NCBI GenBank assembly: GCA_963752285.1
Contig: CAVVXN010000002.1
Coordinates: 64,001-128,000, forward strand
Direction: 5' to 3'
From: an uncultured Planctomycetota bacterium
GTDB lineage: Bacteria > Planctomycetota > PLA2 > JAEUHO01
DNA: 64,000 nt
The position numbers were made by a program, and so were the translations under genes. Numbering within the stretch: position 1 is the stretch's first letter; the number at the start of each line of letters is the position of its first letter. The notes under the pieces are model-generated. The model was not told the origin of the DNA. It saw only the letters and a list, made by a program, of their open reading frames with translations, and did not search any database. This document shows positions 35,509 to 41,330 of this stretch, in pieces.

Positions 35509-36411
35509 ATGAGAGGCAGAACCCATCGTGGATGGACCACCGCCCTGGCGCTCACGGCGGCGCTGGCGTTCTCGGCGGGAGTGGGGCTCGCCGTCGGCAA
35601 CGCGACGACCGGGATCGGCAGCGGCGGCCGCGTGCTCGGCGACATCTCGCAGGAGCCGGGCGAGACCGACACGATCGGGCTCCACCTGATCGCCGGACAG
35701 GAGCTGACGCTCAAGCTCTCCGCCGCCTTCGACCCGACGGTCACCCTCCGCGGTCCCGACGGCACGCCGCTGCCGCTCGGCGTGACGCCGTCACGGAAGC
35801 TCGCCGTGAAGGGCCTGTCCGTGGCGCAGACCGGCGCGTACTCGTTGACCAGCGCCGCGACCTCCGGCACGCAGGGCCGCTACAAGCTGACGGCCCTCGC
35901 CGCCTGGCCGAAGAAGGTGGACCTGAGCGGCGACGGCCAGACCACGTTCGACGTCTGGATGCCCGCCGACGCCGCCTTCAAGGGCAAGTTCGTCTGCAGC
36001 GCCGGCGACGCATCGGTGGTCTCGGTCACCGACCCCTCCGGCGCGCAGATCGCGGGTCCGATCACGGGCCGCCGCGGGAAGGTCGCGTGGAAGTCGCTGC
36101 ACACGCCCGTGGCCGGCCTCTACCGGGTGACCATGGACGGGCCCGGCGCGTACCGCGGCACGGTCGTCCGGAAGGTCCGCAAGGCGCGCGGTGGCAACGT
36201 CGACGTGCGCAACGGGCTGTCGACGGTCAGCTTCGCCCGGGACGGCATCGCGCAGCTCTTCGCCTCGCGCTGCGCCGCGTGCCACACATGGGCCACCAGC
36301 TACTCCGGTGTGACGTCGTACGCCAAGCTGGCGTACGCCCGCATGCACAACGGCACCATGCCCCAGCAGGGACCTCCCGTGGTCGGCAGCGACCGGCGGG
36401 TGTCAAGGTAG
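35509..36411 (+). CDS. secreted protein with C-terminal c-type heme motif, 3' end cut by IS
   Basis: Signal peptide, CAACH and GTMP motifs; the last codons and the stop lie inside the IS inverted repeat. Confidence 0.7.
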   Translation: MRGRTHRGWTTALALTAALAFSAGVGLAVGNATTGIGSGGRVLGDISQEPGETDTIGLHLIAGQELTLKLSAAFDPTVTLRGPDGTPLPLGVTPSRKLAVKGLSVAQTGAYSLTSAATSGTQGRYKLTALAAWPKKVDLSGDGQTTFDVWMPADAAFKGKFVCSAGDASVVSVTDPSGAQIAGPITGRRGKVAWKSLHTPVAGLYRVTMDGPGAYRGTVVRKVRKARGGNVDVRNGLSTVSFARDGIAQLFASRCAACHTWATSYSGVTSYAKLAYARMHNGTMPQQGPPVVGSDRRVSR

Positions 36412-37762
36412 TTGTCGCCTCGCGACATGTTCCTACGCAGCCTCTTCCGAGGCGGCCTCGATGCCCGTCTCGGGGTCGAGAGCAACCTCCTGCGGGCGAC
36501 TCCAGTCTCGGGTCTCCTTGGTCCAGCGGTTCGGATTCCGGGCCTTCGCGGCCTCGTGGAGCTCTCTGCGACGTGCCAGGATCTCGACGTCGTCGCCGTC
36601 GTGGCGTTGCCGCGGCGTCACGAACTTGATGGCGCTGTGTCGATGCTCGGTGTCGTACCAATCCACGAACCAGGCCGCCCAGCTGCGCGCCTGCTCGAGC
36701 GAGGCGAAGGGCTTGCGCGGGGACTCCGGGCGGTACTTCGTGGTCCGGAAGAGGGACTCCGAGTACGGGTTGTCGTTGCTCACGCTCGGCCTGCTGAAGG
36801 GCGGCACGACGCCGATGCTCTGCAGGAAGGCCAGCAGCGTGGCCGCCTTCATGGGCGCACCGTTGTCGGAGTGGATCACGAGTTGGTCGCGGCGCACGTC
36901 CTCACGCCGGCAGGCTGCTGCAATCATGGCCTGTGCGTGCTCGGCGGACTCCTCAGCCTGCAGCGTCCATCCCACGATCTTCCGGCTCCAGACGTCCATC
37001 ACGATGTAGTAGTAGAAGAACATCCCGCGCACGGGGCCGCGCAAGTAGGTGATGTCCCAGCTCCACACCTGGTTCGGGCCCGTGGCGACGTGTTCATCGG
37101 GCTTGTGGCGCTCGGTCGGCGGGCGCGAGGGCTCGCGGTGCTTCTGCATCTTCGCTTCGTGCAGGATCCGGTAGAACGTCGACTCACTGCCGAGGTAGAC
37201 ACCGTCGTCGGCGAGCTGCGGCACGATCTGCTTGGGGCTGAGATCACGGTACTCAGGCGCCGTAGCGAGGGCCTTGGTGCGCCACGCTTCCAGCTCGGCC
37301 TCATGCACGCCCTCCCGGCGCAGGAAGGCCCCCAACTCCTCTTCGGAGAGGGCCGAGGCCTCCAGCACGAGGCGGAGCTTGTCCTGGGCGGTGCGGCGGG
37401 CGGAGCCCTTGGACCGGGACTGGCGCTTCTTCTTCGTCATGGGCGAGACGGTAGGCTGCGCCTCGGACGCTCGGCGCAGCCACCGCGACAACGTGTTCTG
37501 CGATACCCCGACCTCCGTGGCAAGGGCCGTCGCGCTGATGGACTCCGGTCCCGCCATGCGCTGGACCATGCGAGCCTTGAAGCCTGCGGTGTACGTGGAC
37601 ATTCACGTCTCCACCGCCCCCTGAGAATCGTTCTGAAAAAAATCGCCCCCCATGGGGGGCCTGCCCTACGGGCAGGAAGAGGGGAGGCCGTGCCCTACCG
37701 AGGCTTCGCCTTGGCAGGGGCCCCACGGCCCCCCCCAGAGGCGGGCGACAACTACGCTGACA
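36401..37762 (-). mobile_element. IS3-family insertion sequence (probably internally deleted)
   Basis: TG...CA ends with imperfect IRs (TGTCAAGGTAGTTGTCGCC / TGTCAGCGTAGTTGTCGCC) around a DDE transposase; no clear target duplication. Confidence 0.88.
36433..37602 (-). CDS. IS3-family transposase (HTH + rve integrase core)
   Basis: WSWDITY, DVWSRKIVGW, HSDNG and NDNPYSESLF motifs, with an N-terminal HTH. Confidence 0.9.
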   Translation of the reverse strand: MSTYTAGFKARMVQRMAGPESISATALATEVGVSQNTLSRWLRRASEAQPTVSPMTKKKRQSRSKGSARRTAQDKLRLVLEASALSEEELGAFLRREGVHEAELEAWRTKALATAPEYRDLSPKQIVPQLADDGVYLGSESTFYRILHEAKMQKHREPSRPPTERHKPDEHVATGPNQVWSWDITYLRGPVRGMFFYYYIVMDVWSRKIVGWTLQAEESAEHAQAMIAAACRREDVRRDQLVIHSDNGAPMKAATLLAFLQSIGVVPPFSRPSVSNDNPYSESLFRTTKYRPESPRKPFASLEQARSWAAWFVDWYDTEHRHSAIKFVTPRQRHDGDDVEILARRRELHEAAKARNPNRWTKETRDWSRPQEVALDPETGIEAASEEAA

Positions 37763-37860
37763 CAGGGGGGAGCCGATGGCGCTGCGGTTGGGGATTGACG
37801 TATACGGTTCACGCCGCACCATTGCGGCAAGACGAACGCAGGCTTGGGTGGAGGAGTCGC

Positions 37861-38220
37861 ATGCCGAAGACGACGAGCATCACCGAGGCGGTCATCAGCC
37901 TGATCCAGACGATGGAGGACGTGGTCCGACGGTTCGGCGACCGGATCGAGCGCGGCCCCGAGGTTCGATCAGTGCCCCACGAGGCCGCGAAGCCTCGTCG
38001 CGTCCGGGATCGGTCGCCACGAACCCCGGCTGCCGAGAGGGCCGCCTCGGCGCCGCGCGCTCCGGCCTCCGGCGCCCCGAAGGTCCGCGGGACGTCCGAG
38101 AAGCTCCGCTCGGCCCTCAAGAACCACTGGGCGAACATGACGCCGGAGGAGCGCGCCGCGCGCATCGCGAAGATGCGGGCCGGCCACCGGAAGGGACGGG
38201 CGCGGGGCACGACGAGCTGA
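37861..38220 (+). CDS. small basic K/R/A-rich protein, paralogue 2
   Basis: GGAGG RBS; paralogue of 19028-19459. Confidence 0.75.
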   Translation: MPKTTSITEAVISLIQTMEDVVRRFGDRIERGPEVRSVPHEAAKPRRVRDRSPRTPAAERAASAPRAPASGAPKVRGTSEKLRSALKNHWANMTPEERAARIAKMRAGHRKGRARGTTS

Positions 38221-38777
38221 GAGGCCAGTCCCGGGCGTACGCGATCCGTCGCGTAGGGCGGACGAGGACCTCGGGAACGGCGGACGGGGCGTTTCCGGCG
38301 GCGGCGCGGCAGCCCCCGAAGGCGCCGCACCACGACGTGCGCCATCGCACTCGCGTGATCCGTCTCGAGCCGCGTCGGGCAGGCGACGGGGGCGCCCGGA
38401 GGGTGGGCCCGGCGGCTCGTCCTCGCTCGACGTTCGCGCTGGCCCGCGCCTCCGCCGGACTCGCGCGAGGACCGCTCGCCCCGGGTCGGCGACGCGCGGT
38501 CCACCCCGCGTCGTCCCCGCGGACCGGGTCACCTCGACGTGCGTTCGGGCCCCCGGTCTGTGGGAGGACGGGCCGCGGCTCCGGGGTGACCGACGGGGGG
38601 GACCCCGACTTCGTCGCGTGCGCCGTCCCATGGCCCTGCGAACCGGCGCGAGGGCGTTTCGAGCCCGCGCGCGCCGGGGAACCCGCGGTCGGACGTGGGG
38701 CTGGCCCGGGTCGATCTCCGTGCCGGCCCGGGCGTGTCGGACCCCTCGGGTAGGTTCACGTCCCAGACCGCGCTTCT

Positions 38778-38792: not shown

Positions 38793-41330
38793 ATGTCCTT
38801 CGAGCCTTCGCCGACCGGGGCGTCCCGGGCGGTTGCGGGCGCGGTCTGTTCGGCCGGCTCCCCGAGCCTGGCCGCGGCGTCCCCTTCGGCGCCCGACGCC
38901 GCTTCGCCGACCCCGCTCCCTTGCCACACCTCCCCCTACTTCGAAGCCGGGCTCCTCGGGGGGCTCGCCGCGGCCGAGATCCGCGAGCGGCTGGCCGGGA
39001 ACCGCCGCACGACCGACCTCGGCCACCGCCGGGACGCCTGGTACCTCGCCGAGGTGCACACCCGCCGCCTCTACGAGGACACCGGCCACCGAAGCACCGT
39101 CGAGTTCGCGGGCGACGTGCTGCGGCTCGACCGCCGCCGCACGCGCGAGCTCGTTCGGGTGGGCAAGCGGCTGCTCGAGCTTCCCCTCGTGGACCTCGCG
39201 TTCCTCCGCCGGGAGATCTCCTGGTCGCACGTGCTGGCGCTCGTGCGCGTCGTCGTGCCCGAGACGCAGTCGGACTGGCTCCTCTACGCGATGACGGAGC
39301 CGGTGCGCGACCTGGACCTCCAGACGCGACTCGCGCGCCCGGGCGACCGTCCGCGGCGCCCCGGCCAGTCCAAGGGAACGCCGGAGGTGCGCTTCCCGTT
39401 TCGGGTCAGCGTATCGAGCCTGCTCCAGCGGAAGATCGAGGACGTGCAGCAGGTGCTCTCGAAGGAGCGGGGCGTTTCGCTCGGGCTCGCTCAGGTGCTC
39501 GAGATGCTCTGCGACGTGGCCCTCGCCACCCCGTCCGACCCCGCGGACCCCAAGGTCGAGACGCGCGTGGACCGCAGCCGCTACACGCTCGTCGTCCACG
39601 ATCGCGGCGGCGACGGCGGTCTGACGGTCAAGACCCGCCATGGCGAGGTGCCGATCGACGGAGCGGGCCGGGAGGACCCGCTCGTCGCGCGCGTCCGGAG
39701 CGAGATGATCCGCTGCGACGCTCGCTGCCTCAAGTGCGACGGCCATGGCGGCGTCGAGGAGCACGTGAAGACGCCGCCGCACCTGCGCGCGAGGGTGCTC
39801 CGGCGGGACGGACATCGCTGCGTCTGCTGCGGCCGCGCCCAGGGGCTGATGGTGCACCACATCCGGTGGCGGAGTCGCGGGGGCCTGACGAACGCCCGAG
39901 GCCTCGTGACGTTGTGTGAATGGTGCCACGCGCTCGTGCACGCGGCGCTCCTCGTGTGCGTGGGCGAGCACGCCAGCAGGATCGAGTTCCAGGACCGCTT
40001 CGGGAGGCGGCTCGGCGGAGGCAAACGACGAAAGCGGGTGGCGGCCTCGGTGATCGCCGAGCTCCTGGCGCAGGTGCCCGTGCTGGCCGGGAGCACGGGC
40101 GGAAGCGTCGAGGAGCCTTCCTTCTCGTTCGACGACTTCCCGGACGCCGTCGATGCCGGGACGTGGCGCCGCCACGCGCATCTCGTCGAATTCGAGGGCG
40201 GCGCGATGCGGCTTCGCCCCGGGCGGCCGCTCGACGTGGAGACTCCGTCGGCGCGTGCGCGGCCCGAGCCGCAGCCGGCGAAGGCCGCGTTCGAGAAGGT
40301 CCTCGGCCGCGAGGCGCTGGTGTACCGCTTCGACGTGACCGCGAGGGCTCGGCGCCTTCGGGGGGAGCCCTTCCCGCACGTGCTCCTCAGCGGCGCGCCC
40401 GGGATGGGCAAGACGTCGATCGCGCGCGGGCTCGCGGCGATGCTCGGCGGGCGGCTCCACGACATCGTCGGTCCGCTCCTCTTCGACAAGGTGACCCTGC
40501 TCCGCCAGCTCCTCGAGATGGAGGACGGGGACGTGCTCTTCCTCGACGAGGTGCACGGGGTTCCCCGACCGGTGCTCGAGGTGCTCTACCGGGCGATGGA
40601 GAGCGGGGAGATCAGCCTTCCGCTCCGGGCCGGGGCGCGCCAGAAGATGGTGCGGTTCGTGCTGCCTCGCGTGACGCTCCTGGCCGCCACGACCGAGCCG
40701 GGGACCCTACCGGGCGCGTTCACGAGCCGCTTCGGCTTCGTGGAGCACCTGGTCCCCTACGGGCGCGAGGATCTGGCGCGGATCGCGGCGGCGCGGGCGA
40801 AGAAGGCCGGGCGCCCGGTGGCGCCCGAGGCCGCGATGACGGTCGCGGAGGCGTCCACGGGGACGCCGCGCGACGCGCTCCGACGCATGGACCAGGTGCT
40901 CGACGAGGCGGCGCTTCACGACGTGCCCCGCGTCACGCGCGCGTTCACCCAGGCGACCTTCGAGCGGCTGGGCTGGTCGCCCGACGGGCTCTGGCCCCTC
41001 GAGCGCTCCTACCTCGACCTCGTGCCCGCGGGCGGGCAGGCGGTCTCGCTCGGACGGATCGCGGGGGCGCTGGGGCTCGACGTGAAGGCGGTCGCGTGGG
41101 ACGTGGAGCCGCGGCTCGTCCGGCGGGACTTCGTCCGTGTGACGCCGAGGGGGCGGGTGCGGGGCGCCGCGGGGCGGGCCCGACGACGCTCTTTGGCGAC
41201 GGCCGCCGGCGCGAGCCCCGCCGGACGGCTGACGACGCGCCGGACGTCCGGCGCCGGTGCGCCCGGCGTCCGGCGGGGCCTTCGGGCTCCACGGCGCCCT
41301 CCCCGAGCGGATTCTCGAGGCCTCGCGTGA
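38793..41330 (+). CDS. DUF222-like / HNH endonuclease / RuvB-like AAA+ ATPase fusion
   Basis: HNH: RDGHRCVCC...VHHI...GGLTN...LVTLCEWCHALVH. RuvB-like: HVLLSGAPGMGKT, VLFLDEVH, AATT, SRFG, GTPR, VEPRL...TPRGR. All are in one frame. Confidence 0.85.
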   Translation: MSFEPSPTGASRAVAGAVCSAGSPSLAAASPSAPDAASPTPLPCHTSPYFEAGLLGGLAAAEIRERLAGNRRTTDLGHRRDAWYLAEVHTRRLYEDTGHRSTVEFAGDVLRLDRRRTRELVRVGKRLLELPLVDLAFLRREISWSHVLALVRVVVPETQSDWLLYAMTEPVRDLDLQTRLARPGDRPRRPGQSKGTPEVRFPFRVSVSSLLQRKIEDVQQVLSKERGVSLGLAQVLEMLCDVALATPSDPADPKVETRVDRSRYTLVVHDRGGDGGLTVKTRHGEVPIDGAGREDPLVARVRSEMIRCDARCLKCDGHGGVEEHVKTPPHLRARVLRRDGHRCVCCGRAQGLMVHHIRWRSRGGLTNARGLVTLCEWCHALVHAALLVCVGEHASRIEFQDRFGRRLGGGKRRKRVAASVIAELLAQVPVLAGSTGGSVEEPSFSFDDFPDAVDAGTWRRHAHLVEFEGGAMRLRPGRPLDVETPSARARPEPQPAKAAFEKVLGREALVYRFDVTARARRLRGEPFPHVLLSGAPGMGKTSIARGLAAMLGGRLHDIVGPLLFDKVTLLRQLLEMEDGDVLFLDEVHGVPRPVLEVLYRAMESGEISLPLRAGARQKMVRFVLPRVTLLAATTEPGTLPGAFTSRFGFVEHLVPYGREDLARIAAARAKKAGRPVAPEAAMTVAEASTGTPRDALRRMDQVLDEAALHDVPRVTRAFTQATFERLGWSPDGLWPLERSYLDLVPAGGQAVSLGRIAGALGLDVKAVAWDVEPRLVRRDFVRVTPRGRVRGAAGRARRRSLATAAGASPAGRLTTRRTSGAGAPGVRRGLRAPRRPPRADSRGLA

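Follow-up and report, generated by a model that had tools for sequence, protein, structure and literature searches.

A planctomycete protein that joins a putative DNA-binding head and an HNH nuclease to a divergent RuvB-type motor, encoded behind a PafBC-type promoter

The DNA analysed here, hereafter the window, is a stretch of 64,000 nucleotides from an uncultured Planctomycetota bacterium (positions 64,001 to 128,000 of contig CAVVXN010000002.1 in the assembly GCA_963752285.1). Positions 38793–41330 of its plus strand are occupied by a single open reading frame (ORF) for a protein in which a putative DNA-binding head and an HNH nuclease are joined to a RuvB-type ATPase. The source assembly comprises 4.64 Mb in 5 contigs and is 89% complete; places outside the window are given below by contig and position. 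An earlier note on this DNA, made from its letters alone, had reported an uninterrupted frame of 845 amino acids, and this was confirmed: the frame starts with ATG, has no internal stop before its stop codon and shows a coding-like GC content at the three codon positions (0.77/0.54/0.91) in a window of 70–76% GC. The passage from the nuclease to the motor is also covered, in pieces of the region 39857–40428, by short DNA contigs from four public soil or wetland metagenome runs, which contain no insertion or deletion; their depth is low, about 2–3, and they cover parts of the gene only. Among the public runs listed as containing this sequence, none was of RNA. With the frame open and these contigs free of indels, no break was seen between the HNH and RuvB parts, in agreement with the note, and we conclude that the ORF genuinely joins three parts: the putative DNA-binding head, the HNH nuclease and a RuvB-type motor of divergent sequence.

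The motor was recognised by its Pfam profiles, RuvB_N (residues 500–653, E-value 1.4e-31) and RuvB_C (732–789, 4.3e-8), together with AAA_lid_4 (656–726, 1.3e-5), whose 25.3 bits lie slightly under the cut-off of 27. The three domains stand in the order of RuvB and possess Walker A and B, sensor 1, the arginine finger and sensor 2. The individual motifs are Walker A GAPGMGKT (534–541), Walker B DE (585–586), ATT (632–634), SRFG (645–648), GTPR (690–693) and TPRGR (786–790), so that the full RuvB-like module listed in the earlier note was found residue by residue. A full-length AlphaFold model of the monomer had a mean predicted local distance difference test score (pLDDT) of 80. Its C-terminal third superposes on the solved RuvB structures 8efv, 7pbl and 1hqc with Foldseek TM scores of 0.85–0.88 at 29–36% identity.

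The nuclease matched HNH (PF01844) at residues 343–383 with 22.6 bits, above the gathering cut-off of 21.4. Its zinc and HNH motifs consist of CxxC (C343, C346), HH (355–356) and CxxCH (C375, C378, H379), in agreement with the earlier note; only the asparagine that the note had included in the motif was misplaced. Among 56 full-length relatives, 90% or more have Asn in the corresponding column, which is Gly370 in the window copy; there, Asn367 sits three residues earlier, and one relative likewise has a shifted Asn. When the model was compared with solved structures by VIA-align, residues ~324–409 matched the HNH domains of TagI (Z 7.3) and of EcoKMcrA and IscB (Z 6.6–6.7), the HNH domain of Cas9 was also matched, and weaker fold matches were obtained with ZRANB3 (Z 4.2) and T4 endonuclease VII (Z 4.0).

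The region preceding the nuclease was predicted to be helical, as had been noted, and a separate model of residues 55–494 reached a pLDDT of 83.7. Residues 73–176 align with the helix-turn-helix (HTH) of Spo0J (1vz0; Z 8.2, root-mean-square deviation 2.2, 91 residues, 21% identity) and with KorB (Z 7.2). It should be noted that VIA-align values under about 8–13 may mean only a common arrangement when the domains are helical, and we regard the match of the head as moderate. Foldseek paired the head with 4umk at a probability of 0.99, but with an E-value of 0.05, and the N-terminal model had no Foldseek match at E ≤ 0.001. Residues R79, Y84, W144 and W162 of the head are invariant in the alignment of relatives. 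The earlier note had likened this region to DUF222 by eye. The window protein itself did not match PF02720 (DUF222) in Pfam at E ≤ 0.1, but 8 of 97 family members matched it at E ≤ 0.01 (best E 4e-6); a remote relationship of the head to DUF222 is thus indirectly supported, through the sequences of its relatives.

Between the head and the nuclease, residues 200–320 resemble MazE-, TraM- and NikR-type chains at Z 4.0–4.6, a weak ribbon-helix-helix likeness inside the stated noise range of VIA-align. No known family matched the helix and hairpin that link the HNH domain to the motor, although P450, D454, W458 and H461 of this linker are invariant in 9 sequences and P450 is conserved to at least 90% in 56 fusions. 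At the C-terminal end, relatives terminate about 10–20 residues beyond TPxGR, without the 50-residue tail of the window copy. The features of the gene are collected in Table 1.

Table 1. Features of the fusion gene and of its flanks (positions in the window)
Feature	Position	Strand	Remarks
Whole ORF	38793..41330	+	845 aa plus stop codon
Ala/Ser/Pro-rich low-complexity N-terminus, residues 1–54	38793..38954	+	predicted disordered, pLDDT <50 (residues 1–46); no alignment with relatives
Helical, putatively DNA-binding head, residues 55–190, ParB/Spo0J/KorB-like HTH, the DUF222-resembling part	38955..39362	+	pLDDT 84–98
Middle region, residues 200–320: two helices, small beta sheet, one helix	39390..39752	+	pLDDT 56–79 (full-length model)
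Zn-binding HNH nuclease, residues 325–405 (C343, C346, H355, H356, C375, C378, H379, H383)	39765..40007	+	Pfam HNH
Linker module, residues 445–480, helix and beta hairpin, P450..D454..W458..H461	40125..40232	+	pLDDT 84–94
RuvB-type AAA+ ATPase, residues 500–653; Walker A 534–541, D585/E586, sensor-1 T633, Arg finger R646	40290..40751	+	Pfam RuvB_N
RuvB AAA lid, residues 656–726, sensor-2 R693 in GTPR	40758..40970	+	Pfam AAA_lid_4
RuvB C-terminal winged-helix (head) domain, residues 732–789	40986..41159	+	Pfam RuvB_C; pLDDT 92–97
Copy-specific Arg/Ala/Gly-rich tail, residues 796–845	41178..41327	+	absent in relatives; pLDDT <50 at 809–838 and 841–845
PafBC-type promoter: -26 TGTCGG, 10-nt spacer, -10-like TAGGTT	38735..38756	+	ends 37 nt before ATG
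Perfect palindrome GCCGGACGTCCGGC inside the tail-coding region	41239..41252	.	one match in the window, expected 0.02

RuvB is the textbook case of a motor that depends on other proteins: RuvA loads it and RuvC does the cutting. The window protein stays below both NCBIfam equivalog models of RuvB, with 177.5 bits for TIGR00635 (cut-off 299.05) and 206.6 bits for NF000868 (cut-off 282). A canonical ruvB that exceeds the NCBIfam cut-off of 299 with 367.2 bits is encoded in the same genome (C5:725751-726653), as are ruvA (C5:1762921-1763493) and ruvC (C4:123273-123719). The three canonical genes lie at three separate places, and neither ruvA nor ruvC is among the genes neighbouring the fusion, as the earlier note had observed. 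In a quick IQ-TREE search with 76 RuvB-type domains, unrooted and without an outgroup from other phyla, one branch splits the motor domains of 56 fusions from 20 canonical planctomycete RuvBs (SH-aLRT, an approximate likelihood-ratio support, 95). The terminal branches of the fusions are long, with a median of 0.63, and that of the window copy is the longest in the tree (1.28). The region of the presensor-1 hairpin, which we take to be the RuvA-binding element of RuvB, is strongly conserved in the 20 canonical proteins and poorly conserved or variable in the fusions; this is consistent with a lost partnership with RuvA, though it is only suggestive. Judged by these comparisons, the window gene is not the RuvB of the cell and belongs to an accessory, lineage-restricted family.

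The source genome encodes two further RuvB-like proteins below the equivalog cut-offs, at C5:127619 and C1:857272. Since both share the helical N-terminus and the CxxC..HH..CxxCH nuclease with the window gene, this genome carries three fusion copies. The homology of these two other paralogues runs from the promoter to the stop codon, and beyond it they have in common one repeat of ~100 bp downstream; neither terminal repeats nor a transposase were found around the homology boundaries. The ratio of nonsynonymous to synonymous substitution rates (dN/dS) between the two is about 0.50–0.58, compared with 0.24–0.34 for canonical RuvB at similar dS (NG86 estimates, in which dS is distorted by the extreme GC content at third codon positions, GC3).

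Beyond this genome, 40 related genomes were surveyed for the N-terminal module. By our reading of the match table (match start before query residue 330, E ≤ 1e-17), it is present in 15 of the 24 genomes of the source family, and no match was obtained in the sister family (11 genomes) or in other families (5 genomes); three genomes (G009, G016 and G019) hold multiple copies. A scan of GTDB species representatives yielded 23 loci, 20 of them in metagenome-assembled genomes of Planctomycetota. Of 151 genomes sampled evenly across the phylum, 9 matched the N-terminal profile at E ≤ 1e-25, the source genome among them; they represent six families, and one genome (G126) has 10 matches. The same profile was run with HMMER against 1.84 billion cluster representatives. 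With a limit of E ≤ 1e-30 it found 898 proteins, and with E ≤ 1e-10 it found 7734. Among the matches listed (150 plus the query), the RuvB-like part is present in 80 and absent in 71, some of the latter being cut by contig ends. One protein without the RuvB part (P0047, 429 aa) is encoded on a 45-kb contig and is therefore a genuine short form. The fusion seen in the window thus recurs in homologues, in at least 80 protein clusters defined at 50% identity, and the databases name these relatives only 'AAA family ATPase' or 'Holliday junction DNA helicase RuvB'.

The catalytic centres of both enzymatic parts are conserved. C343, C346, H356 and H379 of the nuclease and K540, D585, E586, T633, R646 and R693 of the motor are invariant in 56 full-length fusions, and H355, C375, C378 and H383 are conserved to at least 90% and are all kept in the window copy. 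The invariant catalytic residues, taken with a dN/dS below 1, indicate that selection maintains the enzyme, which fits a host function and a selfish one alike.

Two short unfused proteins of the source genome look like members of the family. They are encoded at C5:2143409-2144539 (-) and C5:1809710-1810930 (-), comprise 376 and 406 aa, and have a similar helical head and an HNH-like C-terminus without a RuvB module. Their identity to the family is 21–24%, and neither had a Pfam match.

The fusion gene of the window is preceded by a promoter-like element of the type used by PafBC. The motif TGTCGG-N10-TAnnnT has one match in the 64-kb window, against an expectation of 0.07, and it agrees exactly with the published PafBC consensus tGTCgg(N10)tA(N3)T (PMC8635444). 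In mycobacteria, PafBC is reported to insert between the housekeeping sigma factor and the -26 element, a mode of action called 'sigma adaptation', and to be stimulated by single-stranded DNA (ssDNA; PMC8635444, PMC11804915). In the whole source genome, the strict motif was observed 12 times, compared with a mean of 2.5 (range 0–5) in ten genomes simulated by a third-order Markov model. Control patterns behaved like the simulated genomes: eleven permuted -26 hexamers gave 0–4 matches, and spacings from N6 to N14 other than N10 gave 0–5.

Eleven of the 12 matches lie 9–72 nt upstream of an ORF with coding-type GC3, as called by a simple GC3-based procedure; behind the remaining one, at C2:129097 (-), no ORF was found. 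The motif precedes recA (C5:803180), ssb (C5:2119647) and a thyX-like gene (C3:337563), identified by the Pfam domains RecA, SSB and Thy1, a topoisomerase VI subunit B-like gene (C1:697587, minus strand; Pfam Topo-VIb transducer), all three fusion copies and the two short DUF222-like HNH genes. It also precedes genes for a rubrerythrin (C1:87672) and a LysM protein (C1:690772). These 12 sites point to a small putative DNA-damage regulon in a genome of Planctomycetota.

Two of these genes are described here in their own right. The topoisomerase VI subunit B-like gene (C1:695886-697556, minus strand) matched the transducer domain at 1.7e-59 and stands directly behind its PafBC-type promoter. The ThyX-like protein (C3:337613-339220, plus strand) has 535 aa, roughly double the length that is usual, and contains two Thy1 stretches.

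Candidate regulators are encoded in the same genome. A PafC-like protein with HTH_PafC, WYL and WCX domains and a PafB-like protein with WYL and WCX domains were located at C5:740173-741273 (+) and C5:1138337-1139398 (-), respectively. In other genomes, 23 regions upstream of fusion genes were located; five loci truncated at the 5' end and three loci undetected by tblastn were left out, and removal of five duplicates left 18 regions. The strict motif is present in 11 of the 18 and a relaxed form, TGTC-N11/12-TAnnnT, in 15, and the three loci undetected by tblastn have near-variants of the motif by eye. Upstream of recA, 30 loci were surveyed, of which two with too little upstream DNA were dropped. 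Within 500 nt of recA the strict motif was found in 11 of 18 genomes of the source family, in none of 6 genomes of the sister family and in none of 4 others. PafC-type regulators were detected in 23 of 24 genomes of the source family, in all 11 of the sister family and, as one weak match, in the 5 others; in the two families sampled they thus occur throughout the order. Among the papers listed by a literature search, none deals with a PafBC-type regulon in Planctomycetes; a 2023 review and a 2019 paper place PafBC-like proteins mainly in Actinobacteria, Firmicutes and Bacteroidetes, and some of them in Proteobacteria (PMC7617703, PMC6789036).

Half of the unique fusion promoters contain a second element. 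A direct repeat GTTC-N7-GTT[CA], or its complement, overlaps the -10 element or lies just past it in 9 of the 18 regions (loci L010, L011, L012, L019, L020, L040, L047, L049 and L054). A repeat of this form is the SOS-box type of Caulobacter (PMC9578287), and its presence suggests that LexA and a PafBC-like activator jointly control these genes. The window promoter keeps only the second GTTC, and both other copies of the genome have the full GTTC-N7-GTTA. The source genome encodes one LexA. A candidate box of the Caulobacter type before its own lexA was rejected, the repeat there being spaced by 8 nt and not 7, and we therefore make no claim of LexA control.

The domains, the conserved catalytic centres, the paralogy beside a complete RuvABC set, the lack of partner genes and the promoter class together favour a stand-alone, DNA-damage-inducible, ATP-driven endonuclease, that is, a self-contained nuclease-translocase acting on stalled forks or recombination intermediates. 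We give this reading about an even chance of being right. A role in the damage response is favoured because the PafBC-type promoter is common to recA and ssb, and from the same likeness of promoters the fusion probably cuts and remodels DNA after damage. The earlier note had offered three functions, a junction-migrating and cleaving enzyme, a homing-type element with its own motor and an anti-phage ATPase-nuclease. The outcomes of the three refutation checks named in that note all speak for a real and separate fusion. The class of its promoter fits the first two functions better than the third, but no single function is established.

In the mechanism that we propose, the fusion would be transcribed from the -26 TGTCGG and -10 TAGGTT promoter, the architecture that PafBC uses to retarget the housekeeping sigma factor. 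The promoter sequence is present as described, and induction through the WYL activators would be expected from it; after damage, the fusion protein would then be made alongside RecA and SSB. Its RuvB module would assemble into a ring and pump duplex DNA; targeting, the task of RuvA, may fall to the N-terminal HTH head, and cutting, the task of RuvC, to the tethered HNH domain. An enzyme of this kind could search out DNA that is branched or stalled (reversed forks, Holliday junctions and D-loops are examples), move it and then nick or cleave it. The host may profit from this, or the gene itself may.

Several points weigh against the nuclease-translocase. The regulon was drawn from a single short motif with ORFs called simply by GC3, and of its 12 matches one lacks an ORF and two precede genes outside DNA metabolism (for the LysM protein and the rubrerythrin). 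About 400 kb separate the PafB-like gene from the PafC-like one, in contrast to the operon of Actinobacteria, and the sister family has PafC-like genes in 11 of 11 genomes, yet the strict motif before recA in 0 of 6. Ring formation, the DNA substrate and independence of RuvA are predicted only. The family is patchy (15 of 24 genomes in the source family, 9 of 151 phylum-wide) and multi-copy, and its evolution, faster than that of RuvB by dN/dS, fits an accessory or selfish gene equally well. The window copy, finally, is atypical in its Gly370, its 50-residue tail and its branch of 1.28 against a median of 0.63, and for these reasons its nuclease may be weakened.

The same atypical traits would be expected if the window copy were a decaying or nuclease-impaired paralogue in a family whose other members may function. 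Besides Gly370, where at least 90% of the 56 relatives have Asn, and the longest terminal branch of the tree, such decay would account for the 54-residue low-complexity N-terminus, for the tail, which reads through a palindrome of a dispersed repeat, and for the promoter that retains only one half-site of GTTC-N7-GTTA. All 845 codons are nevertheless open, with a GC3 of 0.91 like that of real genes of the window, and all other invariant residues are kept, namely both histidines, the four zinc cysteines and all ATPase residues. The PafBC-type promoter is intact, the structure was predicted with confidence, and the loss of Asn is softened by Asn367 nearby and by the relative with an equally shifted Asn. 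We see little chance that the window copy is decaying.

The distribution of the family bears on the main rival of the nuclease-translocase, a selfish homing-type element that would be the planctomycete counterpart of the mycobacterial 13E12 repeats. The 13E12 proteins of M. tuberculosis are DUF222-HNH proteins. Their genes are described as induced by DNA damage, as having RecA_NDp and LexA sites, and as insertion elements (PMC3381160), and the remote kinship of the fusion to DUF222 connects it with them. As a selfish element, the unit of promoter and ORF would be switched on with RecA, the HNH domain would cut a cognate site, perhaps a GCCGGACGTCCGGC-like palindrome bound by the HTH head, and the RuvB-like motor would drive branch migration and so let recombinational repair place copies of the gene at new sites. 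The variable copy number (three here, several in G009, G016 and G019 and 10 matches in G126), the scatter over 9 of 151 genomes of the phylum in six families, and a constraint weaker than that on RuvB with the fast evolution that goes with it would all suit such an element about as well as the nuclease-translocase. So would the duplicated unit, which consists of promoter and ORF alone, and the neighbours, which differ at every copy; no neighbour gene is common to 21 fusion loci, where the only clusters obtained were the gene itself and its antisense shadow ORFs.

The locus in the window is also variable. An IS3-type transposase gene lies 1.2 kb upstream of the fusion, and G001, a genome of the same genus, keeps the neighbouring kinase gene without an adjoining fusion gene. 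The comparison is uninformative, however: only this histidine-kinase gene is conserved in synteny (73% identity), and because the gene next to it in G001 has no homologue in the source genome, insertion cannot be told from loss. Neither an empty site paired with a filled one nor a target-site duplication turned up, and no integrase, terminal repeat, intron or intein context was seen; the invariant catalytic residues in 56 fusions with a dN/dS below 1 speak no more for a host function than for a selfish one. On balance, we consider the selfish element possible and rather doubtful.

The palindrome in the tail-coding region also has to be weighed here. GCCGGACGTCCGGC is the core of a dispersed repeat resembling repetitive extragenic palindromes (REP), of which the source genome has about a dozen copies, including a tandem array of 5 x 115 bp at C1:643066-643640. 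Other sites are C1:858520, C1:858816, C5:128736, C3:96293 and C5:1981814, some of them beside unrelated genes. Downstream of the C1 paralogue the palindrome occurs twice, and the C5 paralogue is followed by its symmetric variant GCCGAACGTTCGGC. In G004 it flanks the stop codon of the fusion gene (C2:11166 and 11213), and in G019 the single copy of the genome (C362:8150) lies 42 nt past a fusion gene. Three genomes have such palindromes where fusion genes end on the 3' side, the sole copy of G019 among them, and this would fit a selfish element. Against this stands that the palindrome is a general dispersed repeat found beside unrelated genes, and that it was not found in G009 or G016, both of which have many fusion copies. 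As a universal feature of the family it was rejected, since it was not found in these two genomes, occurs beside unrelated genes as well, and is replaced at other loci by different hairpins or by no hairpin at all. Its position behind fusion genes could reflect a chance accumulation of REP sequences at 3' ends, or the palindrome could form a hairpin in the RNA or serve the HTH head as a site on the DNA. The sequences TTGTAAAGA and CCGACC..GGTCGG often stand beside GCCGGACGTCCGGC.

A bolder version of the nuclease-translocase can be built on these repeats. In it, one polypeptide would unite the activities of RuvA, RuvB and RuvC under an ssDNA-sensing PafBC-like switch and would maybe act on, or spread via, REP palindromes of the GCCGGACGTCCGGC type, as a damage-triggered element of homing or recombination with a motor of its own; it would also be a junction-processing enzyme of a new class. 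We hold this to be unlikely.

The third function offered by the earlier note was an anti-phage one. As an abortive-infection effector, the fusion would be switched on by a WYL regulator that senses ssDNA or phage intermediates, and the ATPase-nuclease would degrade the invading DNA or that of the cell itself. ATPase-nuclease fusions that evolve fast and occur patchily and in multiple copies are typical of defence genes, and these traits are all found here. WYL regulators are reported to control defence systems too (PMC9122601, 10.1101/2021.12.19.473356). A search of PADLOC-DB 2.0 and PHROGs with the fusion gave only generic HNH, P-loop and clamp-loader matches and no full-length defence model. 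The weak partial PADLOC matches were to the HNH region of DpdF (2.7e-6) and to the P-loops of IetA, TRIP13 and mad8; they span only 20–70 residues of generic HNH or P-loop sequence and do not amount to a match at the level of a system. In addition, no defence-island context was seen, no conserved partner gene was found at 21 loci, and the promoter is common to recA, ssb and thyX and not to recognisable defence genes. We consider an anti-phage effector improbable, and a damage-inducible nuclease-translocase remains the reading that we prefer.

Compared with known proteins, the fusion resembles housekeeping RuvB in the order of RuvB_N, lid and winged-helix head, in all ATPase residues and in its fold (TM 0.85–0.88). 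It differs by its scores below the equivalog cut-offs, its separate and faster-evolving group, about 495 extra N-terminal residues and a variable hairpin, and by existing in addition to canonical ruvA, ruvB and ruvC. With the DUF222-HNH proteins (PF02720 and PF01844), 13E12 among them, it has in common a helical N-terminus followed by a zinc-binding HNH domain and the occurrence as multi-copy, scattered genes. The promoters are likewise of the RecA_NDp/PafBC type, often with an SOS-box-like repeat, and unfused forms exist here too (PMC3381160 for 13E12). In contrast to those proteins, the fusion is only remotely related to DUF222 (8 of 97 relatives match PF02720), belongs to Planctomycetota and has close relatives of which about half (80 of the 151 listed) carry a RuvB-type motor.

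A comparable logic is seen in ZRANB3, a eukaryotic SNF2 translocase and ATP-dependent endonuclease with a C-terminal HNH domain that joins a duplex-DNA motor and a nuclease in one chain and responds to replication stress (PMC5481773); its HNH domain was matched at Z 4.2, as given above. The two motors are unrelated, that of ZRANB3 being of the SF2/SNF2 type and that of the fusion a predicted AAA+ ring of the RuvB kind. The domains also follow each other in the opposite order, and the fusion has no PCNA- or ubiquitin-binding modules; the likeness is one of analogy only. The regulation resembles the PafBC/RecA-NDp regulon of Actinobacteria in the identical promoter architecture before recA and DUF222-like HNH genes and in the presence of PafC- and PafB-like proteins. 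Unlike there, the host is a planctomycete, the regulator genes lie apart and unlinked to a Pup-proteasome locus, and there are only 12 strict sites; the system is known here from sequence alone.

The titles and abstracts covered by a literature search describe no HNH-RuvB fusion. The DUF222-like HNH and RuvB parts are both known kinds, of which the gene is a new combination, and its PafBC-type context in Planctomycetota is unexpected. To our knowledge, a PafBC-type regulon has so far been described only in Actinobacteria, and the results suggest that the damage response by PafBC 'sigma adaptation' extends to Planctomycetota. They also suggest that DUF222-like HNH genes are wired into the damage response in two distant phyla, which gives a clue to the function of 13E12. 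If the fusion replaces both partners of RuvB, it would show a different design for enzymes that process junctions or forks, and it would be a bacterial counterpart of ZRANB3.

The genes around the fusion in the window encode a Ser/Thr kinase with tetratricopeptide repeats, an extracytoplasmic function sigma factor with a FecR-like protein, the IS3-type transposase and a convergent hybrid histidine kinase. The IS3-family transposase gene (36433-37602, minus strand) codes for 389 aa with HTH_Tnp_1 and rve domains and is a separate element. It lies within a stretch of lower GC content (0.683, 36001-38000), and related copies occur elsewhere in G001.

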